From: Trueperaceae bacterium
GTDB taxonomy: Bacteria; Deinococcota; Deinococci; Deinococcales; Trueperaceae
NCBI GenBank assembly: GCA_965213925.1
Contig: OZ243927.1
Coordinates: 2,368,001 to 2,432,000, forward strand
Direction of reading: 5' to 3'
Length of the DNA stretch: 64,000 nucleotides
The notes beneath the pieces were generated by a model. The model did no database searches. It was not told the origin of the DNA and saw nothing but the letters and a program-made list of their open reading frames with translations. Position numbers and translations under genes: made by a program. This document shows, one piece after another, positions 32,583-56,203 of this stretch (its first letter is position 1; the number at the start of each line of letters is the position of its first letter).

Positions 32583-32663
32583 GTGTTGGGAGAGTGTACT
32601 ACTCTTAATACAGCAAGGTCAATGGTAAACCAAAGCTCTTATTATGATGTTACGATTAGCAAG

Positions 32664-33305
32664 ATGAGTTTGGAAACACAAAAATACTTGAGGATATTCG
32701 TGCCTGGGGTTCTAATTTTACTTTTAGGAACTCCTCTTTTTTTAGAAAGCTTCGGTATAACCGATGTAAAATCCTTCCTTAGTTTTGAAAACGCTCTACT
32801 AGTTCCGTTAGCAGTTGTTTTGGGCGTCTTTTACCACGTTTCTAGTGTAAGAAGCTTCGTTAAACAGATATTTACTCAAAAGACAGATAAGAAAATAGTT
32901 GATAGATTGCTCTCAGTATCTGACGAATCTATTGAAGTAAGAAACGTAGCAAAATGGTGTAACGGTAAAACTGCTAACAGTATTTTTTACAATATCGTTG
33001 ATAATGACTCAAGTCTTTCGGAAAAGGTCAAGATAATACGTTTCAACGGAGTAATATGGACTTCATTTATTGACGCATCTACAATATGCTTCCTTTTCTC
33101 AGGTGTCTATCTAGGAAGCTATCAATTTGTCGAACGGTCTCACTTTATCACTCTTGCATTAGTGCTTTGGATAGCGAGCATCGTTTGCTTTCTTCTAATT
33201 TTCCCTACAGTCAATCGACATTTAGAGCTACAAGATGAGCAGATTGACGCCCTAATCGCAAATAAAAAGTCTGAGCTACTATCCAAGCTTCACGAGAACT
33301 TATGA
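32664..33305 (+). CDS. uncharacterised 4-TM membrane protein (213 aa), AT-rich
   Basis: TACGAT 7 nt before ATG 32664; four hydrophobic segments around a ~70-aa soluble loop. Confidence 0.75.
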   Translation: MSLETQKYLRIFVPGVLILLLGTPLFLESFGITDVKSFLSFENALLVPLAVVLGVFYHVSSVRSFVKQIFTQKTDKKIVDRLLSVSDESIEVRNVAKWCNGKTANSIFYNIVDNDSSLSEKVKIIRFNGVIWTSFIDASTICFLFSGVYLGSYQFVERSHFITLALVLWIASIVCFLLIFPTVNRHLELQDEQIDALIANKKSELLSKLHENL

Positions 33306-33327
33306 AGAAAAATAGCCTCTACACACT

Positions 33328-34368
33328 GTGATTTATGCTCTTCATGAAAAAACTATTCTTTTGATTCAAAAAGAGTATGTTGGCTCTTCTAACCCTTGGT
33401 ATTTAGGGTTCAGTGGAGGTAAAGATTCTTCTGCGCTGCTAAAGCTCGTTTTCACTGCTCTGCGAGAATTACCGGAAGTCTATAAACCGATAACCCTTAT
33501 CTACGTAGATACAGGCGTAGAAATCCCGCTTATTCGTGACCTTGTTATTGAAACTGTAAATGGCGTTCTGGAAGAGTCTGCGACTCATAATATTCCTGTG
33601 AAAGTAGAAATCGCAACACCAAAGCTTGAAGACCGCTTTTTCGTCAAGGTCATAGGAAGAGGTTATCCGCCTCCGACTAATAAATTTAGGTGGTGTACGG
33701 ATAGGCTACGTATTAACCCTGTTAAGAGAGTTTTAGATTCGGTCAAGGAAAAGCAAAGTCTTATACTGCTGGGCATAAGACACGGCGAAAGTAAGGAGCG
33801 AGACAGGACAATAGAGCGCCACAAGCAAGACAAAGAGTTTTATTTTCGGCAGGCGAACAACCGAAATACGCTTATATTCAGCCCTATTGTTGAGTATAGT
33901 ACGAAAGATATCTGGACAACGCTTGCACTTCTTACTGAGCCTGTTAGCTTAAATGCTATACGCTTGTTTGAACTTTATACAGAGGCTAGTGGTGAGTGTC
34001 CGACAGTTCGTGATCCGAAAGGTACTCCATGCGGAAAAGGAAGATTCGGGTGCTGGACGTGTACGGTAGTGCGAAAAGACCGTGCAGTTACGAGTATGGT
34101 GAAAGAGGGGCATCATAGCCTAGCCCCTTTGCTCGAATTTCGAAATTGGCTAGCCGAAATTAGAGATTTGCCTCAGTACCGATGTAAGGTGCGGCGTAAT
34201 GGACAACGCGGTCTAGGTCCGCTGACCCTCGCTGCTAGAAAAGAGACTCTTGCTAAACTACTTCACGCACAAATCGTTAGCCGCTACAAGCTAATAGATG
34301 GGGAAGAACTTTTGCTAATCGAAGAGCTTTGGAAGAAAGATGTAAACTCGACATCTTATCGTGAGTAA
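33328..34368 (+). CDS. stand-alone DndC-like PAPS-reductase-family protein
   Basis: PP-loop FSGGKDSS, DTGVEIP, FFVKVIGRGYPPP..KFRWCTDRL, GECP, CGKGRFGCWTCTVV; start uncertain. Confidence 0.85.
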   Translation: MIYALHEKTILLIQKEYVGSSNPWYLGFSGGKDSSALLKLVFTALRELPEVYKPITLIYVDTGVEIPLIRDLVIETVNGVLEESATHNIPVKVEIATPKLEDRFFVKVIGRGYPPPTNKFRWCTDRLRINPVKRVLDSVKEKQSLILLGIRHGESKERDRTIERHKQDKEFYFRQANNRNTLIFSPIVEYSTKDIWTTLALLTEPVSLNAIRLFELYTEASGECPTVRDPKGTPCGKGRFGCWTCTVVRKDRAVTSMVKEGHHSLAPLLEFRNWLAEIRDLPQYRCKVRRNGQRGLGPLTLAARKETLAKLLHAQIVSRYKLIDGEELLLIEELWKKDVNSTSYRE

Positions 34369-34378
34369 TGCGAAAAGT

Positions 34379-34687
34379 ATGATTGCGCTTCTCAACCAAA
34401 ACCGCCCCGCCCTCGAGCACCTCTGCCGCCAATTCTTCGTAGAGCGCCTAGAGGTTTTCGGCTCTGCCACAACGACCTCTTTTGACCTCGAGCACAGCGA
34501 CCTAGACTTTTTGGTGCGCTTTCAGCAGCCTGCCCCCATAAACCTCTCCGACCAGTATTTCGGACTCGCAGAAGGATTAGAGGCGCTCTTTGGTCGTAAG
34601 ATTGACTTAGTGATGGAGGGGGCGCTTAAAAATCCTTACTTTATCGAGAGCGTGAATGAGACGAGAGAACTACTCTATGCAGCGTAG
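34379..34687 (+). CDS. minimal nucleotidyltransferase (MntA-type antitoxin)
   Basis: VFGS......D...SDLDFLV, LFGRKIDLV....LKNPYF. Confidence 0.9.
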   Translation: MIALLNQNRPALEHLCRQFFVERLEVFGSATTTSFDLEHSDLDFLVRFQQPAPINLSDQYFGLAEGLEALFGRKIDLVMEGALKNPYFIESVNETRELLYAA

Positions 34688-35016
34688 AACGCTCAAAATG
34701 TTAGAGGACATCAGAGATGCGGCGGCGTTTATTCTTGAGCAAACGAGGAATGTGTCCCTAACGGACTTATAGACAAGACCGCCTTTTGCGTCAAGCTGTC
34801 GAGCGTAACTTTGAAATCATCGGTGAGGCGATTCGCCGTTTGCGAGACCATGACCCCAAGGTGGCGAACAAAATAGGCGAATCGGGGCGTATCATCTCAT
34901 TTCGCAACACGCTTATTCACGGCTACGATTTGATAGATGACGCTCTGGTGTGGGATGTGGTGGAGAATAAACTTCCTGTACTACTTCATGAGGTCGAAGC
35001 GTTGATGCAAAGTTAA
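34677..35016 (+). pseudogene. HEPN (DUF86/HepT-type) ribonuclease toxin with a +1 frameshift at ~34767
   Basis: MQRRTLKMLEDIRDAA... then AVERNFEIIGEA and RNTLIHGY (Rx4HxY) in the next frame; removing one T joins them. Confidence 0.8.
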
Positions 35017-35767
35017 GAGACTAACGTTTTGAAGTTGTCACCGCGCTTCTCAACCAGAACTGCCCCGCCCTCGAGCCTCATTCTACAAAGCCAGCCAAGT
35101 ACATCCGTAGAAACCAGATAGACTGAACCTCATGAGGTTTACCGAAGCAGAACTTCGCGCAGCAGGGCTGTCAGAAGAGGAAATCGGGGCTATAAAAAGG
35201 CAGCATCTAGGCGGCACATCTGGCGGTGAAGGGCTTCGCTACGAAGAGGAATACGCGGTTTATCGGCTCATCACTGCTATGTTTGACTATATTGAGCAAG
35301 GCAGAGATTTTGGCGTTCTTCTTCAGGATATGTGTCCGGTTGATGACGTAGTGATTGACGCGGAGACTCGAGAATACTGCCAACTCAAGACGGGAGCTGC
35401 GGAAACGTGGGGCGCGAACTCCAGCAAATTAGAGAGGCAATTCAAGCTGCAAAAGAGGCTTTGCGAGGCTAGAGGTGACTCAGCATTTCTACTAAGGTTG
35501 GTCACGCCGCATGAGGAGCGCTACAAGAGCTTCAACGAAAACTTGCCCGCAGAGCTTAAACGCTGCACGGAAATAACGCTTTTTAGGCAGTTGGGGGGGC
35601 GCAGGGAGATGTGGTCCGAAACGAGTCCTTGCTACGAAGAACTCCGCGAACTCTGCGCGTATGAACCGGACAGCCCTTCGCACCGAGAGGTCGTCGTGGC
35701 GCTTTTCTATGACCGGCTTCAAGCAACGTCGCCCGGCGAATGGTATCTGAGCGCGATTTCTGACTAT

Positions 35768-35998
35768 TACACTGTCAACTAAGTATTGCTACCTCTTGTA
35801 TGTCACCCTGAGCCGAAGGCGTAAGGGTCTCGTTTGGTTACTGCCAAAACTTTGTAACTCGCATCTCGGCTGGTTGGGAATGAAAGACGAGATTCTTTCA
35901 TCGTTCATCCCCGAAAGGGGGCTCCACGGAGCCTGTCCTGAGCTTGCCGAAGGGTTGCGTTCAAAATGACATCACTCATTTTTTACTTGACGGTGTAC
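35768..35998. mobile_element. MITE family A, copy 2, inserted in the nuclease gene
   Basis: TIRs TACACTGTCAACTAAG / TTTACTTGACGGTGTAC, TAT on both flanks. Confidence 0.8.
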
Positions 35999-36145
35999 TA
36001 TCTCAAAAGCAATGAAGATTTAGCCTTCGCTGTTCCGATGGTACTTAGCGACGTTGAGCCTCCGCCTCGGTGGGAAGAAGCCGTCGCAACTGCTGAGCGC
36101 ATTTCGGGCTTGACGCTACACATCAATGGTGATTTCTGCTACTAT

Positions 36146-36260
36146 TAGCAGGTATCATCTGGTTTGAGACACTCTCACTCTAAAAAACAGCGTCTAGCAC
36201 ACACGTTATGAGATGATACCTGCGGCATTCTCTCTCAGTATGTTGCGGAACTGCTACTAT
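36146..36260. mobile_element. 115-bp insertion (MITE or IS remnant) in the nuclease gene
   Basis: CTGCTACTAT repeated at 36136-36145 and 36251-36260; internal 13-bp IR GCAGGTATCATCT/AGATGATACCTGC. Confidence 0.65.
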
Positions 36261-36394
36261 AGTTACATTTACAATTCGGGCGCTTTTGATAGCGGAGCCA
36301 TCGGAAGAGTAGGGAGTGACAGGCTTCACAGGTTTTTGGACAGAATCGTGAATACTAAACCTGGTGTTATAGATGAGTTTTGGGAGCAACTGCT

Positions 36395-36922
36395 ATGAAC
36401 AGAACTATATCTGAGATGGTCACACCTAGAGCGGAAGATAGCCTCAACGAACTCTTGAACGCCAAGGGCGACGTACCCCACTATCAAAAAGCGATGACAG
36501 CGCTCGGTCAGGAGTTGGGGAGGCACATCTCGAGCCAACTCTTAGAAACCTCTTCTGTTTGTTTAGTATTCACCGTAGAAGATGCCGACTTCTTGGCGCG
36601 TGGTCTCTTAAAAAGCATCTCAGGAGTAGTTGACGCGGATAATATTCATGTTGTTTGCTTTTGGAACAAGCGTGAGCAATTGGGCGGCGTGAGCGTCGCT
36701 CCTATCATTCGCCGCTACATCGAGCCCTTTGACAAGGTGGACGCCGTCATCGTGCTCAAGTCAATCATCTCGAGTTCATGCGTTGTCAGAACGAATCTGA
36801 TGGAGATATTAAGCAAAGCGGAGCCAGAAAGGGTCTTCGTTACGGCTCCAGTTATGTTTGTAGGTTCTACTAAAATGTTGGAGCAAGAGTTTTCGGCGGA
36901 TATCGCTTCGAAGTTTGAGTAA
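36395..36922 (+). pseudogene. UPRTase/PRTase-fold protein, 3'-truncated by IS982
   Basis: ATGA overlap with the nuclease stop; N-terminal helix YQKAMTALGQELG and degenerate PRPP-loop-like VIVLKSIISSSC; stop codon supplied by the IS end. Confidence 0.55.
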
Positions 36923-37916
36923 CCTAAGTTCGGAGTTTCCAAATAGCATAAGCATCTCCTAGAATGAGGGTGTTGAAGGCTCAAAAAAGGAGATGCTTAG
37001 GATGAGTTTACTAGAATTGTTCTGCGAGGTGGATGACTTCTGCAGAGGCTTCGCGCTCTGGGCACATAAACAGCAGCTTGCTGAGAGTAGAAAGCGTGGT
37101 CCTAAGTGCCGCTTGAGCGTAAGCGAAGTGATGACGATCATGATTCACTTTCACAGTTCAGGCTACCGAGACTTCAAGAGCCACTACCAGAAACACGTGT
37201 GCAAGCAGCTTAAAGGTGAGTTTCCAGCACTGGTATCGTACTCGCGCTTTGTAGAACTGACCTCAGAGGTTTTGCTGCCGCTTTGCGCCTATCTGCGAGC
37301 GAGTATAGGTGAAGTAACAGGTATCAGCTTTGTAGATAGCACGCATGTGGCAGTGCGCCACAACAAACGTATTGAACGCAACAAGGTCTTTGCAGGCTTA
37401 GCAGCGCGTGGCTGTACCGGCATGGGTTGGTTCTATGGTTTCGAGCTGCATCTCATCATCAACGATAAGGGTGAACTGCTCGCCGTCTATCTAACGCCTG
37501 GCGATACGGATGATCGCAAGCCGCTCGGTGTACTTACGCAAAACCTGTTCGGTAAGCTTTTCGGTGACAAGGGTTATCTCTCACAAGACCTCTTCGAAAA
37601 GTTCTTTGAGCAAGGCATAGAACTCATCACGACCATCCGCAAGAACATGAAAAGCGCGCTGAAGCTTGAGGACAAGATTCTCCTGCGCAAGCGGTTCATC
37701 ACCGTTCGTCCAGCTTGACTGGATCGAAACGGTGAACGATCAGCTCAAGAATATCTCGCAGATTGAGCACACCAGACACCGAAAGCCTGCTAACTTTGCT
37801 GTCAATCTCATCGCTGGACTCATCGCCTATCAGCACCAGCCCAAGAAGCCTTCGCTGAATCTGGGAGCTGACATTGACCCTCTCCCTGTCCTGATTTGAC
37901 TTCGAACTTAGGTTAC
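36919..37916 (+). mobile_element. IS982-family insertion sequence (copy 1)
   Basis: 14-bp TIRs GTAACCTAAGTTCG / CGAACTTAGGTTAC; near-identical left end at 63679; no target duplication. Confidence 0.9.
36993..37899 (+). pseudogene. IS982 transposase frameshifted by a 22-bp insertion (37701-37722)
   Basis: [43 protein letters not shown] split by ACCGTTCGTCCAGCTTGACTGG. Confidence 0.85.
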
Positions 37917-37937
37917 ATAATGATAGGCGCCTTACTT

Positions 37938-38820
37938 ACGCCAATTCGGAAAAGATTTGACAGCGGGAGAAGTGAGGGTTGCAATGATGTATGCGCAAAA
38001 TCCCAACCCTCGAAGAGATTATACAAGCCGTCGAACGTTTACCCCTCAAGAAGCGTAGAAAAGCCCCTCAAGGACGTGCTCCTGTTTTTCCAGACTCGTT
38101 CATCATCGCCTTAGCGGTCTATCAGAAGCTGTCGAGTTTTCGCTATAGCCGGAAGATGCTTGAAGTTGCTGCATCGTTCGGCGTGGACGTACCTGTACCC
38201 TCAACGTTTTGTGAGCGTAAGCGCCTCCTGATAGGACAGATTATTCTCGCGGTTAAACAGCTTTGCACCGGGCATAACACGACGAAACAGCACCTCGACT
38301 CGAAGAAACTAGAAGTAGTAGATTTTGCCCGTGCTAAAAGGACCAAGCTTGCGGGCAGTTATGGGCGTGACCACGTCCATAACACCACCTTCTATGGCTT
38401 TCGGCTTCATGCGCGTGTGGACGATACAGGCAGACTCTGTGAGGTACTGCTGCGAGGCGCGAACGAACATGATGTTAAGGTCGCGCCTCGCCTACTAGAC
38501 AAACTCACTTACGCCATTGTAACCGCCGATAAAGGCTATATCAGCTCCGAGCTTAAAGCCGACGTTGCCTCCCAAGCGGTTGACCTTATAACCCCGCGCC
38601 GCAGCAACCAGCTACCCCCGCCCAAGCGTGAGCAGAGGCTTTACCAAGGACACCGCATCGTTGAGTCGGTCTTCTCGTCCTTGGATAGACTTGGACTCTC
38701 TGACAGACCCTACCGCTCGACGGTGGGCTGCATCCTGCACGTTTACACCACCTTGCTCGCTTACCAACTCAGCCGTTTAGGGGCATTTGAGCTTTGAATT
38801 TCCCTTTTCCGAATTGGGGT
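37938..38820 (+). mobile_element. second, distinct IS982-like insertion sequence
   Basis: 17-bp TIRs ACGCCAATTCGGAAAAG / CTTTTCCGAATTGGGGT (1 mismatch); TTACTT duplicated at 37932-37937 and 38821-38826. Confidence 0.88.
37991..38797 (+). CDS. DDE transposase (IS982-like), intact
   Basis: HLDS, FYGFRLH, NEHD, ADKGY and RIVESVFS motifs. Confidence 0.88.
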   Translation: MRKIPTLEEIIQAVERLPLKKRRKAPQGRAPVFPDSFIIALAVYQKLSSFRYSRKMLEVAASFGVDVPVPSTFCERKRLLIGQIILAVKQLCTGHNTTKQHLDSKKLEVVDFARAKRTKLAGSYGRDHVHNTTFYGFRLHARVDDTGRLCEVLLRGANEHDVKVAPRLLDKLTYAIVTADKGYISSELKADVASQAVDLITPRRSNQLPPPKREQRLYQGHRIVESVFSSLDRLGLSDRPYRSTVGCILHVYTTLLAYQLSRLGAFEL

Positions 38821-38920
38821 TTACTTTATTATATTCACAAAGCCTTAACTATGAAGCGAGCAGCAGACCCTTGAGGACAGCGTAGCTTCAGCTTTAGGGG
38901 GCTGCAAGAAAGGAGAAGAC

Positions 38921-39085
38921 GTGAGCGACGCAGAACTCCGAAAATTGCATCAGCATTTGCGTAAGGCGTCACAGAAAACGGCGGGGCTTAGTGTAAAGAC
39001 GTTCCCGGAGATGATGACGATGCTCGCGCTGCGGCGCGAACTGAGCCGCGCGCTCAGCGTTGTTGAGCGGAGCATGAAAGATTGA
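38921..39085 (+). CDS. small hypothetical protein (54 aa), below the ORF-track cutoff
   Basis: AAGGAG RBS, GTG start, MSDAELRKLHQHLRKASQKTAGLSVKTFPEMMTMLALRRELSRALSVVERSMKD. Confidence 0.5.
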   Translation: MSDAELRKLHQHLRKASQKTAGLSVKTFPEMMTMLALRRELSRALSVVERSMKD

Positions 39086-39207
39086 CGCGCTGGCGTTCGT
39101 GAGAGGGCTCGATATTTCGAATCTTTACACAGTGGTCGCCTCGCGCGGTGACGCCCTTCAGTTTTTCTGGTGTAAATAAATGGTGCCGAGGCGCTGACGA
39201 GCCACTT

Positions 39208-39393
39208 TCACTTAGGCTTGTTGTCCGTTTCTTTAGGCTTATTGCCCCGGCGAAACATGTAGAACGTCGCGCCTACGCCCCCTAGCAAGCTGAGCCCCAA
39301 GCTCCAGAAAAGGGGCGTGCCGAAAGCGAGAAGGCCGATAAAGAGGAGCGCCGTTGCGCCGATTCCCCAAAGCATCGCGTCTTCAAAATCCAT
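39208..39393 (-). CDS. small two-TM membrane protein
   Basis: Two hydrophobic segments and a basic tail. Confidence 0.65.
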   Translation of the reverse strand: MDFEDAMLWGIGATALLFIGLLAFGTPLFWSLGLSLLGGVGATFYMFRRGNKPKETDNKPK

Positions 39394-39600
39394 AGTTCCA
39401 TGCTGCTAGGAAAAGAGAGGCGTTGCAAGTGAAGGTACTACATTTATGAAGACATAGTTTATGAAGACATACGGACCCCACTTCACTCCCTATCACTGAG
39501 AGAAGGCCTCGACGACGTAATTCGATTTTGCAAGACGGCGAGTAACCGAGCACGCTACAAGATATTGACATTCCTGTGTTAAGAAGCTCACTATAGGGGT

Positions 39601-40392
39601 ATGAATCAGCGTCAGATTGACCTTGCCCTGCTCGCCGGAATCGGCGTTCTGCTCGTCGCCATCCTCGTGCTCGCCTTGAGCGCCGCGCCTATGCGGGGCG
39701 GCTCGGCGGAAGACCCGCCTAACGCGGAGCAGACATCGAACGACGCCGCGAATCCTTCTGGAAATCCGGCGGAAAACCAAGCGGAGCAAGGGGAAGCCGC
39801 GCAGAATCAGCCCTCGGAAGAGGTGAGCGCCGTGGACGTGACGCCCGAGGAAACGAGCGCCGCTGAGGGTGTGTCCGTAGAGAACGCGGAGGACGACGCG
39901 GCGCAAACGGCTGAAGGCGACGCTGCCGAGAGCGCCGCACCCTCGGAGGGAGAAGGAGGGGGCGAAGCGGACGCCGAGGGTGCGTCAGATGCAGAGGCGA
40001 ATACCGCGGATACTGAGGCGGGCACGGAGGGCGCGCAAGCGGGCGAAGAGGCGGCGGCTCCCGTAGAGGGGGCGCAAGCTACCCCGACTGGAGCGGTCAA
40101 CTTGAGCCGCGTCGGTTTCGCGTTCATCACCGCCGAGTCGGGCGCGTGCAGCATCCCCTTACAGCCCTGGCGTCAGGTCGCAGTGAGCCGCGACCTCTTG
40201 GCACAGTACGGCTGCGGCGCGACGGTCACGCTCGACTTAGCTGACACCGTCAACGGCACACAGCAAGTTACCGCGCAGATCGCCGACACGATGAACCCGA
40301 GTTTCGAACGCACCGTGAATATCTTTGTTGGGGAGGAGGAGCCGGCGCTCGAGTACGGCATCACTACCGGCACCCTGCAAGGTGGGCCATAA
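39601..40392 (+). CDS. membrane-anchored protein with acidic linker and C-terminal 3D/DPBB-like domain
   Basis: N-terminal TM, E/A-rich linker, VAVSRDLL...IADTMNP motif; TTGACA upstream. Confidence 0.7.
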   Translation: MNQRQIDLALLAGIGVLLVAILVLALSAAPMRGGSAEDPPNAEQTSNDAANPSGNPAENQAEQGEAAQNQPSEEVSAVDVTPEETSAAEGVSVENAEDDAAQTAEGDAAESAAPSEGEGGGEADAEGASDAEANTADTEAGTEGAQAGEEAAAPVEGAQATPTGAVNLSRVGFAFITAESGACSIPLQPWRQVAVSRDLLAQYGCGATVTLDLADTVNGTQQVTAQIADTMNPSFERTVNIFVGEEEPALEYGITTGTLQGGP

Positions 40393-40498
40393 GTTGAACC
40401 TCCACGTGTTTATGTACGAGTAGCTTTACGAAAGTTGAGAGGACTGAGGTAAAAGTTTTCTCTTAGTCCTCAGTCCTTTCCTCTTGTATTCTGTTCCT

Positions 40499-40828
40499 AT
40501 GCGCCGCTTCACCGCTCAAGGAACCAACACGGGCTTCGCCTGCGTCCACTGCGGCCGCGACGTGCCGCCCCTCGCGAACGGCTCGTACCGCAACCACTGC
40601 CCGCACTGCCTCTACTCGCTTCACGTCGACGTTTTCCCCGGCGACAGGGCGAGCGACTGCGGCGGCGTGTTGGAGCCCGTGAGCGTGGATTACAGCGGCA
40701 AAAAAGGCTGGGTCATCGTTCACCACTGCCAGACGTGCGGCGAGGTGCGGCGCAACAAAGCCGCGCTCGGTGACGCGGCAATGCCCGACGATTACGACGT
40801 GATTTTGGAGCTTAGTCAGCGAGCTTAG
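40499..40828 (+). CDS. RNHCP domain protein
   Basis: CVHCG, YRNHCPHCLYSLHVD..PGDRA. Confidence 0.9.
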   Translation: MRRFTAQGTNTGFACVHCGRDVPPLANGSYRNHCPHCLYSLHVDVFPGDRASDCGGVLEPVSVDYSGKKGWVIVHHCQTCGEVRRNKAALGDAAMPDDYDVILELSQRA

Positions 40829-40908
40829 CGAGGTACACAGACGAGGTATCTGAACGGCGTGGTTTTAAGCTGGTACCTAATCGCTCGCCCCTTTCGAAAG
40901 GACCCCTT

Positions 40909-41700
40909 ATGGCTTACGCACCGCCGGACGTCGAGACGCTCGAGCTGACCCACCAAGACGCCGCCCTGCGAATCACCCTCAACCGCCCCGACGTGCTCAA
41001 CGCCCTCTCGCTAGACCTCTTAGGTGAACTGCGAGACGCGCTGCAAGAGGCGGCGGCGGCGGACGACGTTCGCGCCGTTCTCTTGACGGGCGCAGGGCGC
41101 GGCTTCTCGGCGGGCGCGGACCTCGCCTCGACGCCCGTAGACGGAAACTTCGAAGACCTCATCGAAACTTACTACAACCCCGTCGTTCGGGCTATCGCGA
41201 CGATGCCTAAGCCCGTTATCGCGGGCGTCAACGGCGTGGCGGCGGGCGCGGGAATGTCTTTAGCGCTCGCATGTGACACGCGCTTACTTTCATCCGCGGC
41301 CGCCTTCGCCGTCGGGTTCACGGGCATCGGCTTGGTCATGGACGCCTCGGCGAGCTACTTTTTGCCGCGCCTAGTCGGCCGGGGACGCGCCTTCGAACTG
41401 ACCTACACCGGGCGAAAGGTGGGAGCAGAGGAGGCGCTAAATCTAGGCTTAGCCGAGCAAATCGTTCCGGCTGAGGACTTCGCGGAGACCGCCTGGGCGC
41501 TGACCCGGCGTTTGGCGCAGGGACCCACCAAGGCGTTCGCGCTGGTCAAAGAGGAGATCAACGCCTCGGCGCATCACGACTTAGAGGCGCAGCTCGGGCT
41601 CGAGGCGAAACTCCAAGAAGTCGCCTCGAACACCGCCGACGTGCGCGAAGGGGTCGCCGCGTTTAGAGAGAAACGCGCGCCGAACTTCAAGGGTGAATAG
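40909..41700 (+). CDS. enoyl-CoA hydratase/isomerase (PaaG-like)
   Basis: LNRPDVLNAL, FSAGADL, GVAAGAG, EGVAAFREKR. Confidence 0.92.
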   Translation: MAYAPPDVETLELTHQDAALRITLNRPDVLNALSLDLLGELRDALQEAAAADDVRAVLLTGAGRGFSAGADLASTPVDGNFEDLIETYYNPVVRAIATMPKPVIAGVNGVAAGAGMSLALACDTRLLSSAAAFAVGFTGIGLVMDASASYFLPRLVGRGRAFELTYTGRKVGAEEALNLGLAEQIVPAEDFAETAWALTRRLAQGPTKAFALVKEEINASAHHDLEAQLGLEAKLQEVASNTADVREGVAAFREKRAPNFKGE

Positions 41701-41715
41701 CGTTTGAGCATATTA

Positions 41716-41932
41716 GTACACCGTTGATCAAGTTTCGCAACACTGTTGTCACCCCGTTCACGTAGTCGGGCGTAGCCTTGCGAAGCGAAGCGCAGTCGAG
41801 GGGTCTCGCCTCGCAATCTCTCACGGAGGAGAAGGCGAATGCAGAGATTCTTTCACTCCACAGCCTGCCCTGAGCAAAGTCGAATGGGTTACGTTCAGAA
41901 TGACATTACTCATTCTTTAATTAACAGAGTAG
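41716..41932. mobile_element. MITE family A, copy 3
   Basis: GTACACCGTTGATCAAG...CTTTAATTAACAGAGTAG with TTA on both flanks; shares GAGATTCTTTCACT and TTCAGAATGACA. Confidence 0.7.
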
Positions 41933-41945
41933 TTAGTATGGCGCG

Positions 41946-42488
41946 TCAGCGCTTCTTGCGCCGCCGCTTGCGTCCTTTCCACATGTGGTCAGGCTGGATA
42001 CCGTCCGCTAAGAGGTGGAGCCACTGCGAGAGGTAGTAGCCCGCGAGCGCGCCGACGGCGAGTTCTTGCCAGTTTTCACGTAAGGCTAGGCGGATGCGGA
42101 AGGTGTAGCCGAAAAAGGGCGAGAGCGCCGACACGCCCCACCCTAGCGCGAGCGCGACGAGCGCCATGTAGAGAAGGCGGGTCAGCGGACCAACGAGCCA
42201 GGAGTGCGAGAGCCCCCGGTGCTTGAAGAGCTTACCGTAAGGCACCCAGAGGAGCCCCAAGAGCCCCCAGTTACTCTTCGCGCGCACGCGGTTCTCGGCG
42301 AGGTCGAGGTCGGGGGTGACGAGATACGTGCCGGTAAAATACGCCGCCGTAAAGACGCCGACCGTTTCGGGCGCTAAGAGCACGTCGTATTCGGCGGTGT
42401 AGCCCTGCGACTGGGCGAGCGCGTAGCCGCTCACGAGAAGACCGAAGGCGGTGAGGTTGATGGCTTCGTGGGTGCGTCCGCTAGGCAT
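41946..42488 (-). CDS. DUF2227 putative metal-binding membrane protein
   Basis: MPSGRTH, PDLD, HRGLSH and HLLAD motifs. Confidence 0.88.
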   Translation of the reverse strand: MPSGRTHEAINLTAFGLLVSGYALAQSQGYTAEYDVLLAPETVGVFTAAYFTGTYLVTPDLDLAENRVRAKSNWGLLGLLWVPYGKLFKHRGLSHSWLVGPLTRLLYMALVALALGWGVSALSPFFGYTFRIRLALRENWQELAVGALAGYYLSQWLHLLADGIQPDHMWKGRKRRRKKR

Positions 42489-42754
42489 CTCTTCACCATA
42501 AAGGCTGAAGGTGAAAGGAGCCGTAAGGGAGTTCTCGCTTCTGTTCAGGCTCGAGCATGACTTCGCAGGATTAAAAAATCGGGGTCGTGGCGCTATCTGG
42601 AACGGTGCAAGGGTCAGATTAAAGGGTTGCAAAGGTCTGGTTGTAGTAGCGCGCCTCGACGGGAGTACGCAGAAACATTCGACTTGGAGCCGCTGACATC
42701 TCAACGGGAAGCTAACTCATGGTGACGCCTAACCCCGGGTTGCTACACTGTCCT

Positions 42755-44011
42755 ATGAAAACTACAGTATACCTATGCAGCCTTTGGTTGCTGCTCTTGA
42801 GCACGGCTGCGGCGCAGCGCATCGCTTACGTGACGCCGGCGGGCGAGCTGGCGACGGTGGAGCCGGACGGATCGCAAACAAGAATTCTTGCGGAACCGGG
42901 ACGCTACCAGTTCCCGGCGTGGTCACCTGACGGCGAGCGGATTGCCGTTATCGGCGCGGACGCGGAGGGCGCGGCCGTCTTTAGCGTCGCGGACGCGGCG
43001 TGGGGCGAACCCGCGCGTCACTACAGCAGCCAACGCGAAGCGCCCATCTATCTCTACTGGTCGCCCGACTCCGAGACCATCAGCTTTCTCGCCAACCGCC
43101 CCGAGGTCGGGCTAGCGCTGCACCTCGCGCCTGTGAGCCGCGAGGACAACCCCGAAGAGAGCCGACTTCTCTCGACGGGGAGCCCTTTTTACTGGCAGTG
43201 GACCGAGGACGCGCAGCGTTTGCTCGTGCATACCGGACTGACGGGAGAGGACGCGCGGCTCGGCTTCATGGCGGCGGCGGAGGATAACCTCACCGAAAAC
43301 CTCTCCAACCCCGGGCTCTTCCAAGCGCCGGGCATCTCGGCGAGTGGCGACTACATCGCCTACGCGGAGATAGACGCTGCGGGGCGCGGTCGCGTCGTCT
43401 TAGCGGACACAACGGAAGGGGCAGGCGAAAGCGAGCGGCGTGAGGTGCCGCACCAGGGGCTCGTCGCCCTGTCGTGGAGCCCCGCTGAGGACACGCTCGC
43501 GCTGATGAGCCCGCCCGTTGCTGCGCCGCATACCTACGGACCGATTCGCCTCCTAGACGCCGCGACGGGCGACCTGACGCCGCTCGTCGAGGAGGTCGCC
43601 ATCGCCTTTTTCTGGTCGCCGGACGGCAGCAAAATCGCCTACCTCTCGCCGCTGACAAGCGAGGACGAGGGACAACAGGCGCGAGCGCCGATGACGCAGG
43701 TCAGCTTGCGTACCCCAACCTCCCAGCCCAGGGCTCCGCTGCTCCTCAACCTCTCGGTTGTTGATGTGGCGAGCGGCGTGAGCGAGCGGCTCACGACCTT
43801 CGCGCCGAGCCCTCTGTTCATCGGTCAATATCTGCCCTTTTTCGACCAGTACGCGCTCAGCCACCGCCTCTGGTCGCCAGCGAGCGACGCGCTCGCACTG
43901 CCGATGTTGACGGTGGAGGACGGGCAACCGAGGTCACAAGTGGTCGTCGTGCCCCTTCAAGGGGAGCCGCGTCCTATCGTGCCGGGTGACATGCCGTCTT
44001 GGAGTCCCTAA
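42755..44011 (+). CDS. secreted TolB-like beta-propeller protein
   Basis: Signal peptide; repeated WSPD motifs; TACACT 5 nt before ATG. Confidence 0.8.
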   Translation: MKTTVYLCSLWLLLLSTAAAQRIAYVTPAGELATVEPDGSQTRILAEPGRYQFPAWSPDGERIAVIGADAEGAAVFSVADAAWGEPARHYSSQREAPIYLYWSPDSETISFLANRPEVGLALHLAPVSREDNPEESRLLSTGSPFYWQWTEDAQRLLVHTGLTGEDARLGFMAAAEDNLTENLSNPGLFQAPGISASGDYIAYAEIDAAGRGRVVLADTTEGAGESERREVPHQGLVALSWSPAEDTLALMSPPVAAPHTYGPIRLLDAATGDLTPLVEEVAIAFFWSPDGSKIAYLSPLTSEDEGQQARAPMTQVSLRTPTSQPRAPLLLNLSVVDVASGVSERLTTFAPSPLFIGQYLPFFDQYALSHRLWSPASDALALPMLTVEDGQPRSQVVVVPLQGEPRPIVPGDMPSWSP

Positions 44012-44240
44012 CGTCCGTTCAATGAGGTGCGTCTGCTTTAGATGTCGAGCTGAGTCTGCGAGCTACCGAACTGCGCTCGAGAGGTCTTGAAAGATACCTA
44101 CACTACGAGTTCCTGGGCGTTCCTCAAGATAACCTCACGAGTCCCCAAGAGGTCGAGTGAGGTGAGCCGAGTGGTGAAGCGGTCAACCTACACGAAAAAG
44201 CGCACCTCGAGGTGCGCTTTTAAGCGTTTAGAACGCGGTA

Positions 44241-46688
44241 TTACTGGGAGAGAAACTCTGGCGCGAGCGCGACCGACTCGGCGTTATCGACGTCTACCGA
44301 TGTAGACGGTTTAATGTTCCAGTCGCCCTTGTCGTAATCTAGGATGTTATTGAACGCGAGCACGCTGTCCTTGGTCTTCTCCGCGACGAAAAGGGTTTCG
44401 CCGTCAAAGGTGATGTCTACTGGGTTACCCAGTGTCGTATTGGGTCCGCGCACGCGCGCGCTCACTTCAACATCGCCATTCGCACTGCTCGCGTCGGTCA
44501 GGACGTAAAGTGCGCCGTCCGCGTCGAACCCGTCTTGGTCGGGCGTGGTCGCCGCGCCTACGTCCGAGAGGATGAGCAGGTCTTGGTCCGCGACGTGGAC
44601 GATACCGTGCAGGTTCGCTGAGGCCTTTTCGCCCGCTCTCGTCGGGGTGATTTCGCGCTCGGGACCGTCATCATAGTCTTCGGTGTAGTTTTCATAAACG
44701 AGCACGACGCCGTCCGTTCCCGCCGCGAAGAGGGTGTCGCTCGCGGGGTCGTAGTCCAAGTCCCAGACGCTGCGCTCGTCGTTGCCGAGGTCGGTGGTGT
44801 AGCGCGGGGCGGCGTTGCCCTCCGCGTCAGTGCTGAACACCTTGATGTCCTTTGCGCCGAAGTCAGCGACGATGACGATACCTAGCGAACTTACGACGTC
44901 CAACCCTTTGGGCGCGACGAGGTTTGTCTTATCGCCCATGATAGTGCGGCTTTCTTCAACCTCTCCGCCGTCCTGCGCTGCTAAGCCATCGACGAATAAG
45001 ATGCCGCCTTCGCTAGGCGTGTCGCCATTGTCAAAGGTAAGGTAGCCGTTCCCACTAGTATCAAAGGTGAGGTTCTCGGGGTTGCTGGTCACGTCTGACG
45101 TGTCGAACGCGCCGAGGCTTTCCGAGAGGTCGGGCGCTAACTTGACGACGAAATCGTCGCCCGACTCGGGCGCGTTGCTGACCGCGAAGAGCGCGTCGAT
45201 CTCTATTTCGGCGTCGTCGATGTCGGTCACGTCAGGGTTTTGTGTAGGCTCAGGAGTGGGTTCTGGGTTGGGCTCGGGGCTTGGCTCAGGCGCGTCGAAG
45301 TCCATCGGCGCAGCCACGAGCGACTCGGGCTTCGTCTCGGGCTTGACCAGGTCCGGCATGACCTCGCCGTCCGGTGCGTCCGGCGCGAAGAAGTCGTCGA
45401 AGATGAGCAAGACATCGTTGGCTTTTTCAGCGATGCGAACCTCGTCGTAACCGTTGAAGATCACATCAACTGGGTTGCCGAGGAGTGTCCAGCGACCTCT
45501 GATAAGGCGGTCCGGGGTAGCGTTGCCGTCCAAGGTGCTCGCGTTTAGGAAAGCGTAGATGCTGCCGTCAGTCTTGAAGCCGGGCTGGTCAGGCGTGGTC
45601 GCCGCGCCGACGTCCGTGACGACGAGTGTGTCCGAGCCTGAGTCGTAGGCGACGCCGTGGATGTTGTCCGAGATTTTTTCGCCGTCTTGAGCGGGGGTGA
45701 TGAGGCGGCTGGGGCCATTCGCGCCGTAGTCCTCTAGGTAGCTGTCAAAGACGCCGATGGTACCGTCCGTGATCGCAACGAAAAGGCGGTCCGTGTTCGG
45801 GTCGTAAGCGACGTCCCAGGGCGCGGCGTCCAGCGCGGTCGTGGCAACAGGTGAAGCGTTGCCGCTGTCTGAAGCGTTAAAGACCTTGAGGTCGCCGTCG
45901 CCGAAGTCGGCGGCGATGATGAGACCCGCGTCCTCGGCTAGCTCGATACCCTTAGGAGCCACGAGACCGGTTGCGTCACCGCTGATCTCACGGTCTAGCT
46001 CAGGGTCGAATTCGCTTGCGTTCTCCGGTCTGTCGTAGAGCTGCGCAATGATGCGGATGCTGGGGCCGTTTTCCCCGTCGCCCGCTTGGTACACGTTGCC
46101 GAAGTGGTCCACCTCAACGCCCTCGTTGTTGCCCGCGTTAAAGGTGCTCTGTAACTCGAAGCGCTGGTTGAAGGTGTCGATGAGACCGGCGTTTTCCGGG
46201 CCGTTATTGGAGACATAAACAGTGCGCTCGTCGGGAACGAAGCCGCCGGACGCAGGATTCACAACCACCACGACGACAACAGTGAGCGTGTCGCCGTCCG
46301 TCGTTTGGACGGTGATGGTGACCGTGTAGCCGCCCATCGCGAGGTCGGAGAGGTCAATCGTGAAGGTGCCGCCGTCCAGCGTGACGGGGTTGTCCGCGCT
46401 GATGACCTCGTCGGTACTGCCTTGCACGGTGTAGCGCATGTTCGTTACCGGGACGCTCACGGTGCCCGCGAGGGTCAGTGCGTCGCCGCTCAACATGAGC
46501 GTGCAGTCGCCCGAGACGTCCGTGCAGACGGCGGGCTCGCTCAGCGTCACGGGGGACGCGCTTGGGTCATTTGGTGCTGGCTCGGTTGGCTCAGTGAACG
46601 GCGTGCCGCACGCGGCGAGCAGTCCGGCGGTGAGGAGGAATACTAGTAGTCGGTATGGACGTTTCTCTTTGCGGGTTGGTTGCGTCAT
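44241..46688 (-). CDS. acidic lipoprotein: Ig-like domain plus two tandem beta-propeller repeats
   Basis: Lipobox LAAC; duplicated LVAPKG, WD..YDP..D.LF.A.TDG, DVGAATTPDQ.GF..DG, LGNPVD blocks separated by a PE linker. Confidence 0.8.
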   Translation of the reverse strand: MTQPTRKEKRPYRLLVFLLTAGLLAACGTPFTEPTEPAPNDPSASPVTLSEPAVCTDVSGDCTLMLSGDALTLAGTVSVPVTNMRYTVQGSTDEVISADNPVTLDGGTFTIDLSDLAMGGYTVTITVQTTDGDTLTVVVVVVVNPASGGFVPDERTVYVSNNGPENAGLIDTFNQRFELQSTFNAGNNEGVEVDHFGNVYQAGDGENGPSIRIIAQLYDRPENASEFDPELDREISGDATGLVAPKGIELAEDAGLIIAADFGDGDLKVFNASDSGNASPVATTALDAAPWDVAYDPNTDRLFVAITDGTIGVFDSYLEDYGANGPSRLITPAQDGEKISDNIHGVAYDSGSDTLVVTDVGAATTPDQPGFKTDGSIYAFLNASTLDGNATPDRLIRGRWTLLGNPVDVIFNGYDEVRIAEKANDVLLIFDDFFAPDAPDGEVMPDLVKPETKPESLVAAPMDFDAPEPSPEPNPEPTPEPTQNPDVTDIDDAEIEIDALFAVSNAPESGDDFVVKLAPDLSESLGAFDTSDVTSNPENLTFDTSGNGYLTFDNGDTPSEGGILFVDGLAAQDGGEVEESRTIMGDKTNLVAPKGLDVVSSLGIVIVADFGAKDIKVFSTDAEGNAAPRYTTDLGNDERSVWDLDYDPASDTLFAAGTDGVVLVYENYTEDYDDGPEREITPTRAGEKASANLHGIVHVADQDLLILSDVGAATTPDQDGFDADGALYVLTDASSANGDVEVSARVRGPNTTLGNPVDITFDGETLFVAEKTKDSVLAFNNILDYDKGDWNIKPSTSVDVDNAESVALAPEFLSQ

Positions 46689-46845
46689 TGTTTCCTCTCG
46701 CGAGTCGCGTTGAGATGATCTGAGGTTTCTTTAGGCTCGAGATGTTGCCGAGGTGAAAAGCTTCTCTAGGGCTGCCTCCTCCTGAACTAGAACGCGCCGC
46801 CGAGCCGCTAGCTGACCCTCGGCGCTTTTTCCCTTTAACTCACCT

Positions 46846-46871
46846 AACGCATGAAATTTCACTTTGGATGC
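46846..46871 (-). promoter_or_regulatory. putative ECF-sigma promoter for the lipoprotein gene
   Basis: Minus strand GCATCC-N16-CGTT, matching motifs at 46940 and 47217. Confidence 0.55.
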
Positions 46872-46939
46872 GTCCGCGTGATGAAATTCGGCGCTGCACA
46901 GCCCGAGTGAGCGAAGAGGGAAGACAGACGGCTTCTCGC

Positions 46940-46965
46940 GCATCTAAAACGCTCTGGCGCGCGTT
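46940..46965 (+). promoter_or_regulatory. putative ECF-sigma promoter
   Basis: GCATCT-N16-CGTT upstream of the 74-aa ORF. Confidence 0.5.
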
Positions 46966-47006
46966 TCTTTACAGATGAAGCGTGAGGAAAGGGCATTGAC
47001 GACGCT

Positions 47007-47231
47007 ATGGTAAAACGTAGATACAGTGCGGAAGCCGGCGTAGGGGTGAAGCTGAGCGACATCCAGTGTCTCCCGAAAGATGACCTCTTGGTCCTTATCC
47101 ACCAGGTCGAGGAAGCGGTCGTCCGAGGTACGGCGCAGATGAGGGACTACGAGACGTTCGTGCGCTGCCAAAAGGAGCTGTTGAGGCGTGAATTTTTCCA
47201 CTTTGAACGTGACAAAGCATCCAAACCCTGA
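47007..47231 (+). CDS. small hypothetical protein
   Basis: Amphipathic 74-aa ORF after a promoter motif; true start may be the GTG near 47046. Confidence 0.45.
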   Translation: MVKRRYSAEAGVGVKLSDIQCLPKDDLLVLIHQVEEAVVRGTAQMRDYETFVRCQKELLRREFFHFERDKASKP

Positions 47232-47243
47232 GGTGCGCGCGTA
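47217..47243 (+). promoter_or_regulatory. putative autoregulatory ECF-sigma promoter
   Basis: GCATCC-N17-CGTA just upstream of the sigma gene. Confidence 0.55.
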
Positions 47244-47257
47244 AAGATGGGTAGAGC

Positions 47258-47851
47258 GTGAAGGGCTCGCCGCCAGATTTGCCGCCAGATTCGTCAGTCG
47301 ACCCGCCGGTGGACCCGGAGGCAGCCCTCGTCATCCGTCTAGGGCGCGGCGACGAAAGCGCCCTGGATGAGCTTTACACTCGTCTAGGTGGAGGCGTTTT
47401 TGCACTAGCGTTCGAGTTACTCAGGAGCAGAGAGGAGACTGAAGAGGTCGTGCAAGATACGTTCCTAACGTTGTGCCGCAAAGCGCACCTCTACAACACG
47501 CCCGAACGCTCGCCTCGAGCCTTCGTCTTCACCGTCGCGCGCAATAAAGCGCTCTCGAGGCTGAGACGGCGCAAAGCGCGTCCTACCAAAGCGAGCGGCT
47601 GGGACGTGCACGAGCCCAGCGTCCCCTTCGTCGCGCCTCAGAGCGAGCAGACGACGCGCCTCTACGCCCAAGACCTCTTGGCGACGCTGAGTGGCGAGGA
47701 GCGGGAGCTTGTCGAGGGCGCGTTCTACAAGGGGTACACGCACGCCGAACTCGCCGAACTGACCGGGCTGCCCCTGGGCACCTTGAAGAGCAAGCTGCGC
47801 CGCGCGCTGCTCAAACTCAGAGATCACGCAAAAGCAGGGACGAAGCGATGA
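47258..47851 (+). CDS. ECF RNA polymerase sigma factor (SigK-like)
   Basis: EEVVQDTF, VARNKA and YTHAELAE.TGLPLGTLKS motifs. Confidence 0.93.
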   Translation: MKGSPPDLPPDSSVDPPVDPEAALVIRLGRGDESALDELYTRLGGGVFALAFELLRSREETEEVVQDTFLTLCRKAHLYNTPERSPRAFVFTVARNKALSRLRRRKARPTKASGWDVHEPSVPFVAPQSEQTTRLYAQDLLATLSGEERELVEGAFYKGYTHAELAELTGLPLGTLKSKLRRALLKLRDHAKAGTKR

Positions 47852-48936: not shown

Positions 48937-49042
48937 CGCTCGTCACCCAACCTCACCCCAACTTTGTACTTCCCCTTGCACTGTGACCTCCATGACGAGC
49001 TGTTAAACTGTCCTTGCGGACCAAATCAGGGAGGCTTGTGCT

Positions 49043-50182: not shown

Positions 50183-50383
50183 ATGAAGGCTTTATAAAGG
50201 TTTCTCTACACTTTCGCAAAGCGTTTTTGTGTGCTCTGAGCCCGCTTAGCTATATGAAATCCTTATAGTAAAGAAAACAATCTAGGGAAACCTATAGCGA
50301 AGTTGCTGCAGCAGGGCTACCGCTGTGAGAAACGCGCTAAAAAATGCAGCGAAAGCGACGTGCAGACGAGTCAAAGGAGAACC

Positions 50384-52378: not shown

Positions 52379-52431
52379 TGACGTTGTAGCCGCGAATAGC
52401 AACTAAGTAAAACCCAAGATTGGAGCAACGC

Positions 52432-53785: not shown

Positions 53786-53858
53786 AGGTCGGAATCGATA
53801 AAATTTTAGAGGGTACAGTTCACTGTACCCTCTTTTAATTATCGTATGGCTTGTTAGT

Positions 53859-54821: not shown

Positions 54822-54922
54822 CGGTTTCTCCCTCTATTTAATTGCTCCGTACGAAAGCTGAAGCGAGAATAGGGAAAAGACCCTGAACGCAGCCTGACCG
54901 TGAGGAAAGTATGGGACTTTCT

Positions 54923-56178: not shown

Positions 56179-56203
56179 ATTCCTTACTAGTCAACAAGAA
56201 GAC

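Follow-up and report, generated by a model that had tools for sequence, protein, structure and literature searches.

Several of the defence systems described so far couple a nuclease of the Cap4 type with a regulatory partner. In Lamassu (LmuA and LmuB), Hachiman or AbpAB (HamA and HamB) and HerA-DUF4297, a Cap4-like nuclease domain at the N-terminus is followed by a short C-terminal part, and the nuclease gene shares a compact operon with one accessory gene, which encodes a structural maintenance of chromosomes (SMC) protein, a helicase and the HerA ATPase, respectively; the C-terminal part of the nuclease protein is the one that contacts the partner in LmuA-LmuB, HamA-HamB and DUF4297-HerA. 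In the CBASS systems (signalling against phages that is based on cyclic oligonucleotides), Cap4 carries a SAVED domain and the ligand is read within the effector itself. A type I phosphoribosyltransferase (PRTase) fold is instead found in the mobile accessory modules of Retron-Eco11, ShosT/PsyrT and Ophion OpnC. The locus considered here, from a Trueperaceae bacterium, appears to combine the two elements. It lies in a stretch of 64,000 nucleotides (positions 2,368,001 to 2,432,000, forward strand, of contig OZ243927.1, C1 below), hereafter the window, and consists of two adjoining genes, A and B, beginning at position 35132 and both interrupted. The explanation we favour, with a probability of about 0.55, is that of a dead copy of a two-gene cassette formed by a nuclease effector (A) and a PRTase-fold regulator (B), for which we infer an anti-phage role; the window copy would then probably be a dead anti-phage module.

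The sequence-only reading of the window had proposed that removal of positions 35768-36001 and 36146-36260 joins three open reading frame (ORF) fragments into one protein of 305 residues, the stop codon of which overlaps the start of the next gene. Both statements hold. Taking the two inserts out of 35132-36398 by script leaves 918 nt, namely 305 codons and a TGA, with the predicted junctions (...SAISDY/LKSNED... and ...GDFCYY/SYIYNSG...), and the ATG of gene B (36395-36397) overlaps the TGA of gene A (36396-36398) in an ATGA. With fragment 1 as the query, two intact relatives were retrieved from 5.8 billion proteins by a word-indexed search, P0002 (306 aa, 81% identity to the fragment) and P0003 (305 aa, 47% identity). 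In a joint alignment the three fragments (table 1) tile P0002 from end to end with no overlap and no column lost at the joints, the third one, with its tail ...EFWEQLL, forming the end of a small C-terminal domain; P0003 is likewise colinear with the rebuilt protein, so that the end-to-end alignment called for by the proposal was obtained with both homologues, and chance is not a credible explanation of the tiling.

The two inserts are themselves recognizable. Insert 1 ends in imperfect terminal inverted repeats (TACACTGTCAA... and TACACCGTCAA...) with CTAT on both flanks, interrupts gene A in frame and introduces a stop codon; it yields 158 blastn matches in the same genome, four of which span 85% or more of its length. 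At the two ends of insert 2 there is a perfect direct repeat of 10 nt (CTGCTACTAT); the insert holds a perfect 13-nt stem and changes the frame of gene A by +1, and 27 of its 91 blastn matches in the same genome span at least 85% of its length. Both are mobile-element insertions, from two different dispersed families of repeats resembling miniature inverted-repeat transposable elements (MITEs), with target duplications, and not arbitrary cuts.

Gene B is broken as well, in a manner that is visible only beyond the window. Its relatives are 225-240 aa long, as compared with 175 aa for the ORF in the window, which thus lacks the C-terminal quarter of a ~227-aa protein. When the whole genome was searched by tblastn with the 227-aa homologue P0005, residues 1-175 matched the window locus with 91% identity, and residues 175-227 matched C1:2432675-2432833 with 96% identity on the same strand, ~27.7 kb downstream and 675 bases beyond the window end. 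The two parts are separated by a chromosomal segment bounded by two insertion sequence (IS) copies in direct orientation, of which the genome has four near-identical ones. The premature stop of the 175-aa ORF is made by the first three bases of the left copy, and the outer flanks of the two copies both read GAG, like a 3-bp target duplication, while their inner flanks differ. The split gene, the flanking IS copies and the distant synteny of the intervening segment (see below) together indicate that an IS landed in gene B and that an IS-bounded chromosomal segment now lies there. The cassette was accordingly inactivated three times independently, by two MITEs in A and one IS in B. The partner described from the sequence as a 175-aa protein is thus correct for its N-terminal part and incomplete by the 52 C-terminal codons that lie outside the window, and the decay that had been noted was real and under-described, since it had been recognized in gene A only.

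The family to which A belongs was collected by searching 1.84 billion representative sequences with P0002 (HMMER), which gave 164 relatives at E <= 1e-3, mostly of 280-310 aa. In an alignment of 61 of these 164 (alignment A3), G34, D72, Q84, W93 and Q107 are invariant and G27, G28, Y37, D71 and K86 are conserved in at least 90% of the sequences; D71, D72, Q84 and K86 are all kept in the window copy. The G..YE, VDD and QLK motifs, on which the likeness of A to Cap4/DUF4297-type endonucleases had been based, are present and coincide with these conserved columns, and the likeness is borne out at the level of predicted structure. The AlphaFold2 model of P0002 built on alignment A3 (mean predicted local distance difference test score, pLDDT, 96.1) gave Foldseek E values of only ~5e-3, yet all of the top matches are Cap4-type nucleases. 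Re-scoring with VIA-align, with alignments over residues ~28-228 (29-230 for Cap4), gave for these chains overall Z scores of 9.6-11.1, root-mean-square deviations (rmsd) of 3.1-4.0 and 167-173 aligned residues, the individual values (Z; rmsd; residues aligned) being 11.1, 3.5 and 173 for LmuA (9nxx), 11.1, 3.5 and 169 for Cap4 (6vm5), 10.6, 3.8 and 167 for HerA-DUF4297 (9c1m), 10.4, 3.8 and 171 for a second LmuA (9hr5), 9.6, 3.4 and 168 for HamA/AbpA (8zue), and 9.6, 3.5 and 167 for Avs3 (8dgc). All of the best matches therefore come from defence systems. A Foldseek-independent search of 48,161 chains placed the same five kinds on top, followed by generic restriction-enzyme cores at Z below 7.

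Sequence profiles point in the same direction. The best sequence match of the A3 profile in the PDB is again 8zue (E 0.004), on the GG..G..Y, DD and Q.K motifs; the Pfam model Cap4_nuclease (PF14130, DUF4297) matches 21 of the 61 family members at E values up to 1, the best being 3.7e-6, and the PADLOC models for LmuA and HamA match 13 and four of the 61, respectively. Neither P0002 nor the window fragments are matched by Cap4_nuclease; more generally, A and B of the window gave no match in Pfam or PADLOC and their intact homologues none in NCBIfam. Taken together, the model and the profiles support the assignment of residues ~28-228 to a nuclease domain with the Cap4/LmuA/HamA-type PD-(D/E)xK fold and conserved catalytic residues. 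With CBASS Cap4 (6vm5, 6wan, 6wam and 6vm6, Z 10.6-11.1) A shares this fold and the motif pattern, and differs from it in that a SAVED domain is missing: what follows the nuclease in A comprises only ~75 residues (~228-306), predicted to fold into a small domain of a sheet and helices that ends in a conserved tail. A ligand, if there is one, would be read by a separate protein. This domain had no informative structural match in the search of the 48,161 chains with the whole model of A, in which only a kinesin chain was found at Z 4.7. A cluster annotated as ABC-3C CTD1 that was returned for A by an Atlas feature search (score 0.94) was dropped, as PF20276 was found by Pfam in none of the 61 members. 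In its N-terminal nuclease, short C-terminal part and compact operon with one accessory gene, A resembles LmuA, HamA and DUF4297. At ~300 aa it is smaller than most of these proteins among the PDB matches (304-531 aa), and the partner differs too, being in this case a PRTase-fold protein of 230 aa without a P-loop.

That the partner resembles a uracil phosphoribosyltransferase (UPRTase) had also been proposed from the sequence, and the fold is confirmed by three types of comparison. The profile of B, built on 31 relatives (alignment A1), matches Sulfolobus UPRTase (1vst) with E 1.8e-4. With the AlphaFold2 model of B (pLDDT 92.9), the first 24 Foldseek ranks are all occupied by UPRTases, with template modelling (TM) scores of 0.64-0.76 and 1xtt as the best match (E 3.1e-10, TM 0.67/0.73), and an Atlas structure search gave TM scores of 0.75-0.79 to clusters carrying PF14681. 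In the model B is a single 227-aa domain with a PRTase core and UPRTase-type N- and C-terminal extensions; the fold shared with Upp and PyrR thus spans the whole domain (TM 0.67-0.79), including the pair of N-terminal helices, and the closest structures are UPRTases rather than the PRTases of defence systems. Neither of the Pfam models PF14681 (UPRTase) and PF00156 (Pribosyltran) matched window B at E up to 0.1, and none of the 120 relatives listed has a precomputed Pfam assignment. Comparison of the host's own Upp with the B profile (hhalign) aligned only the N-terminal helix, and the motifs were therefore mapped on the alignment with 1vst.

In that alignment (HMMER) the family sequence VVLKSIISGAC falls on IIADPMIATAS and PGIG on PGLG, and the window sequence KSIISSSC falls on ADPMIATAS, the loop that binds phosphoribosyl pyrophosphate (PRPP) in the Sulfolobus enzyme. 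A PRPP loop of this type consists of a hydrophobic strand, two acidic residues (D-P in UPRTase) and a phosphate loop of small residues. K122-S123, invariant in the 31 sequences, take the place of D-P, so that the loop reads K-S...SGAC in B as opposed to D-P...ATGGS in Upp, and the non-canonical character attributed to it by the sequence-only reading is upheld. The C-terminal D...PG(I/L)G loop of Upp, in contrast, aligns with B; in UPRTase it is the base-binding loop. UPRTases have an arginine-containing pyrophosphate loop after the first core strand. In B the first core strand is followed by an invariant E62-D63-A64-D65, presumably at the site of the pyrophosphate loop of type I PRTases. The family has 21 invariant columns over the 31 sequences. 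In the model E62-D65, E110 and K122-I124 lie where core strands end on their C-terminal side or just past it, and the helix that comes next begins with C129-T133; such a distribution suggests that B has a functional pocket and is not a dead scaffold.

A UPRTase fold next to a nuclease would also be compatible with a housekeeping role in nucleotide salvage, in which the nuclease feeds a salvage phosphoribosyltransferase, and some relatives of B indeed carry a uracil phosphoribosyltransferase annotation (JGI names, and automatic names in the Atlas). We regard this explanation as scarcely credible. The host has its own full-scoring Upp (255 bits against a cut-off of 27 bits) as well as a Pribosyltran-domain gene, read as PyrR, 3 kb upstream of the pair next to the aspartate carbamoyltransferase gene; B no longer has the acidic residues of the PRPP loop; the GC content of the island is foreign; and loss of A as well as B is tolerated in the host. 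The distribution is patchy and accessory, with B in one of 60 relatives of the host (at 45% identity) and in neither of the two same-genus genomes.

The defence PRTases provide a further term of comparison. The PRTase effector of Retron-Eco11 is reported to deplete PRPP and to lose function upon mutation of the catalytic site (PMC12746101); ShosT is reported to disrupt purine metabolism (PMC11961720), and mutants in conserved residues of the Ophion PRTase to lose function (10.1101/2025.09.30.679545). On this basis, B itself could be the effector, poisoning nucleotide metabolism by depletion of PRPP or of nucleotides like Eco11 or ShosT, with A as a sensor of phage DNA. PRTase-domain effectors are established in defence, and two of the 31 B family members give weak matches to the PADLOC model PRTase_III-A (best E 6e-4); the other 29 give none. 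Moreover, type III-A retrons, ShosT/PsyrT and OpnC retain the PRPP motif, which in Eco11 is the canonical VVILTDTIGSGNQ, whereas the B family has K-S for the acidic pair; the type III-A retron effector has a C-terminal winged helix, and B has no such tail; and A has kept its catalytic D/D/Q.K residues, as would be expected of an active nuclease. This arrangement is in our judgement very unlikely.

How A and B are associated was established from the side of B only. A scan for the B motif through one genome per species (185,579 species) confirmed 203 relatives, of which the best 80 loci were kept (L numbers denote individual loci). In 73 of the 80, gene A (detected with its hidden Markov model) lies directly upstream of B on the same strand; seven loci lack it, two of them at contig edges (L034, L051). 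The stop codon of A overlaps the start codon of B by 4 nt in 58 of the 71 loci scored. The two genes that had been paired on the strength of a single decayed locus thus form a conserved two-gene neighbourhood elsewhere. Clustering of the 829 ORFs of at least 80 aa in these loci, a procedure that leaves small genes and RNAs outside its scope, revealed no third conserved gene: B forms a cluster represented in 78 loci and A one in 69, and the next family is found in at most seven, all of them close relatives. Within the same limits no LmuB, HamB or HerA gene, no gene for the CD-NTase (cGAS/DncV-like nucleotidyltransferase) of CBASS, and no reverse transcriptase or DprA-like gene as in type III-A retrons and Ophion is conserved near the pair, with non-coding RNAs outside the search. 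By our assignment from record titles, 47 of the loci belong to Cyanobacteria (one of them to Sericytochromatia), 23 to Pseudomonadota, three to Planctomycetota, two each to Myxococcota and Bacteroidota, and one each to Bdellovibrionota, to an organism labelled as Bifidobacteriaceae and to an unclassified one. The pair is present on two cyanobacterial plasmids, where it is annotated as hypothetical proteins; in one case, a plasmid of 10.4 kb, it adjoins the replication gene, and in the other it has an N6-methylase on one side and a large DEAD-box helicase on the other. GenBank phage records contained no match to B, and relatives of B occur in nine IMG/VR contigs, three of which have A upstream. 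The cassette is accessory, self-contained and horizontally mobile.

Splits or truncations of gene A that are not due to contig ends occur in ~10 of the 73 loci (L024, L027, L028, L043, L045, L058, L071, L072 and L080 among them), a recurrent breakage that fits a costly effector. It would also fit a toxin-antitoxin or addiction module, in which A is a DNase toxin and B a proteinaceous antitoxin with a recycled PRTase fold and no nucleotide sensing, the cassette serving to stabilize plasmids and islands with phage defence as a secondary effect. The tight coupling of two genes with no third component, the location next to a plasmid replication gene, the occurrence of B alone on mobile contigs in the manner of orphan antitoxins, and the breakage of A while B stays intact (a pattern subject to sampling bias) all speak for it. 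Against it are the 21 invariant columns of B, with motif residues at the active-site positions of the fold, which exceed what a pure scaffold needs, the toxin-first gene order, which is less usual among type II toxin-antitoxin pairs, and the point that toxin-antitoxin action and defence by abortive infection are not mutually exclusive. We consider such a module an unlikely but serious alternative.

The cassette of nuclease effector and PRTase-fold regulator would most likely operate as follows. A would be the effector, toxic through its degradation of DNA. A direct contact between the two proteins would be expected from the analogy with LmuA-LmuB, HamA-HamB and DUF4297-HerA: B would bind A, probably through the C-terminal domain of A, and hold it inactive, and it would free or license A once an infection brings about a change that is registered in the nucleotide-type pocket of B. 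Either abortive infection or direct destruction of phage DNA would result. That B acts as a sensor or maker of a nucleotide is suggested by the conservation of the pocket.

Several observations weigh against this interpretation. The close agreement of the distance matrices of A and B (Mantel r 0.94, with none of 999 permutations as high, 56 pairs) shows that the two genes travel together, but it is partly built into the sample, since relatives have both genes in common and kinship by itself can give such a value; that B is intact is in part a sampling effect, the loci having been picked by their B match. The evidence for the loss of the acidic residues from the PRPP loop is a profile alignment and not a ligand-bound structure. 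A search for longer forms of B among proteins of 399-2000 aa yielded no fusion of A and B, which is weak evidence. Many neighbours of the pair are housekeeping genes, such as those for ribosomal proteins, GidA, RpiA and PurL. The PADLOC models are those of the 2023 version, and a newer name for the pair could exist. Finally, B is found without A in five genome loci with sufficient upstream sequence, even at relaxed thresholds (L005, L035, L054, L059 and L074), as well as in four IMG/VR contigs (L101, and L095, L096 and L098 from one lineage), and is thus not strictly dependent on A.

The A-less loci admit of two readings, namely, reuse of the module with other effectors, or an orphan B acting as an antidote. 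In a Sericytochromatia metagenome-assembled genome (L005, 785-9955), B lies behind an unrelated 318-aa ORF, between a complete Gabija system (GajA, E 3.6e-264; GajB, E 1.2e-212) and McrBC; the 318-aa ORF was ruled out as a relative of A (hhalign probability 0.1). In L074 it lies behind a PIN-domain ORF, next to type I restriction-modification genes. In L101 (5237-6678), B directly follows a 255-aa ORF with several hydrophobic helices and is two ORFs upstream of a 567-aa ORF taken by eye for a putative terminase large subunit; it may represent an alternative effector pairing or a phage-borne orphan. The sequences of L095, L096 and L098 are 100% identical to the contig L097, which has both genes, from 6 nt before the start of B onwards; upstream of that break there is gene A in L097 and unrelated small ORFs in the other three, which could reflect replacement of A at the population level or an assembly artefact.

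The same contigs bear on the possibility of a pair akin to restriction-modification, in which B marks or protects self DNA or nucleotides by a glycosyl-transfer type of chemistry and A cuts unprotected DNA, orphan copies of B on phage-like contigs being anti-restriction genes. The putative terminase near the orphan B of L101 and the abrupt break in the IMG/VR lineage are in keeping with it, as is the chemistry of the PRTase fold, which acts at C1' of ribose phosphate. B is, however, a single domain of ~230 aa, with no sign of a second domain that might, for instance, bind DNA; its PRPP loop is devoid of the acidic pair; and we know of no precedent. We hold this to be very unlikely indeed.

A more specific version of the regulator reading envisages B as a new type of immune sensor or signal maker, which reads or makes a pyrimidine nucleotide specific to infection and thereby licenses the Cap4-type nuclease. 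The ligand might be, for example, a phage-specific modified deoxynucleoside monophosphate or a shifted nucleotide pool. The pocket retains the base-binding PG(I/L)G loop, its charge appears inverted with respect to UPRTases, with E-D-A-D at the pyrophosphate loop and K-S for the acidic pair, and B would be modular, as swappable effectors would give the unrelated upstream genes seen in L101 (the multi-pass membrane ORF) and L005. In this full form the proposal is distinctly doubtful.

Full-text literature searches found no paper in which a PRTase- or UPRTase-like protein is the partner of a Cap4/DUF4297 nuclease, with the qualification that supplementary system lists, outside the search, could name one. 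The defence PRTases known, i.e. those of type III-A retrons, ShosT/PsyrT and Ophion OpnC, are not paired with a Cap4-type nuclease in the relevant portions of the papers that describe them (PMC12746101, 10.1101/2022.05.11.491447 and 10.1101/2025.09.30.679545), and a validated PRTase-containing system is mentioned in the legend to Fig. 4 of the DefensePredictor paper (PMC13092281). We rate the combination of nuclease effector and regulator as a known kind of module, and the fold of the regulator as new to it. Should the cassette be a defence system, a small PRTase-fold protein with a remodelled active site would join the SAVED domains, SMC proteins, helicases and HerA ATPases as a further class of partner by which Cap4-type effectors are controlled, and nucleotide-salvage folds would be linked to immune sensing in another way than in the PRTase toxins that deplete PRPP. 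The family is experimentally tractable, with two genes in ~1.6 kb that are intact in cultured Pseudomonas, Marinobacter and Paraburkholderia and on the cyanobacterial plasmids. The window copy, as a pseudogene pair, is of lesser importance than the family; it illustrates how MITE and IS traffic can conceal a recognizable module from gene callers, with parts of one gene 27 kb apart.

Table 1. Features of the A-B locus and its surroundings (positions in the window unless stated otherwise; P0002 and P0005 are the intact homologues named in the text).
Feature	Position	Strand	Description or basis
Gene A fragment 1, codons 1-212	35132..35767	+	nuclease domain with G..YE, VDD and QLK; 81% identity to P0002
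Insert 1, MITE-like	35768..36001		234 nt: element of ~230 nt plus 4-nt CTAT duplication
Gene A fragment 2, codons 213-260	36002..36145	+	84% identity to P0002, colinear
Insert 2, MITE-like repeat	36146..36260		115 nt: 105-nt element plus 10-nt direct repeat
Gene A fragment 3, codons 261-305 and TGA	36261..36398	+	85% identity to P0002
Gene B, N-terminal 175 codons	36395..36919	+	UPRTase fold; TVEDAD and KSIISSSCVVRTN motifs; 91% identity to P0005
IS copy L, 995 bp	36920..37914	+	DDE_Tnp_1_3 transposase in two ORFs (Pfam)
Chromosomal segment, ~25.8 kb	37915..63679		between the IS copies; Pfam, partial synteny
IS copy R	63680..64000, continuing to 64674 past the window end	+	99.8% identical to copy L
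Gene B, last 52 codons	64675-64833 (outside the window; C1:2432675-2432833)	+	after GAG duplication
Low-GC island upstream of the pair	32583..35016	+	Pfam, PADLOC, NCBIfam
Membrane ORF, 240 aa	within 32583-34368	+	37% GC; precedes the DndC-like gene
DndC-like 3'-phosphoadenosine 5'-phosphosulfate reductase, 346 aa	33328-34368	+	PADLOC DndC, E 3.5e-92
MNT	34361-34687	+	PADLOC candidate PDC-S09, E 3e-35
HepT, two frames	34656-35016	+	apparent frameshift at ~34765-34790

An island of low GC content (46%, compared with 58% for the genome) ends with the pair, and the cassette would have come with this island into the variable hotspot that separates pyrR from a conserved chromosomal gene. The island is foreign and, with its DndC-like and MNT/HepT genes, resembles a defence island. 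The DndC-like protein scores 282.7 bits with TIGR03183, slightly below the cut-off of 290.4, and no other dnd-type gene is present among the flanking ORFs scanned; together with the membrane ORF, this solitary gene may form a separate two-gene module. The island as a whole seems to be decaying. In the same-genus genome G001, pyrC-pyrB-pyrR and the conserved gene, which encodes a 322-aa protein, are only 1.7 kb apart, and the cargo between them (L092:15-1109) is a 364-aa protein with an HSDR_N-type restriction-nuclease N-terminus, accompanied by a short ORF that looks like a remnant of the start of MNT. The different cargo identifies the interval between pyrR and the 322-aa gene as a variable hotspot.

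The neighbours of the pair in other genomes were scanned with Pfam for the four nearest genes of 48 loci, covering 138 of 243 neighbour proteins after de-duplication. Genes with a clear defence assignment by Pfam name were found in ~8 of the 48 (raw counts): McrBC and Gabija in L005, SIR2 and MqsA in L017, AAA_15/21 ATPases in L023 and L025, a methylase or Eco57I in L024 and L040, and large helicases in L047 and L048. These figures are no more than suggestive of a defence-island setting, which some of the loci appear to have.

The segment between the two IS copies carries ordinary metabolic and regulatory genes, among them those for an enoyl-CoA hydratase, an acyl-CoA synthetase and an acyl-CoA dehydrogenase, a sigma/anti-sigma pair, an ATP-binding cassette (ABC) exporter, Tpt1 and a short-chain dehydrogenase/reductase, along with another transposase at 37991-38797 (all by Pfam). 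The part tested, 38900-58800, is largely syntenic with G001:C4:3.95-3.98 Mb, which in that genome is ~3.65 Mb from the pyrR locus. The whole arrangement (36920-64000, continuing past the window end to the equivalent of 64833; L001:3680-4833) looks like a composite-transposon-like translocation into gene B, and the origin of the segment there could be either composite transposition or IS-mediated recombination. In both IS copies the transposase is encoded by two ORFs of 241 and 77 aa (36993-37899 and L001:3753-4659), which is indicative of either a programmed frameshift or a shared defect. The acyl-CoA dehydrogenase of the segment is also distributed over two overlapping ORFs, with the N domain at 52420-53130 and the middle and C domains at 52901-53785, probably as the result of a frameshift.

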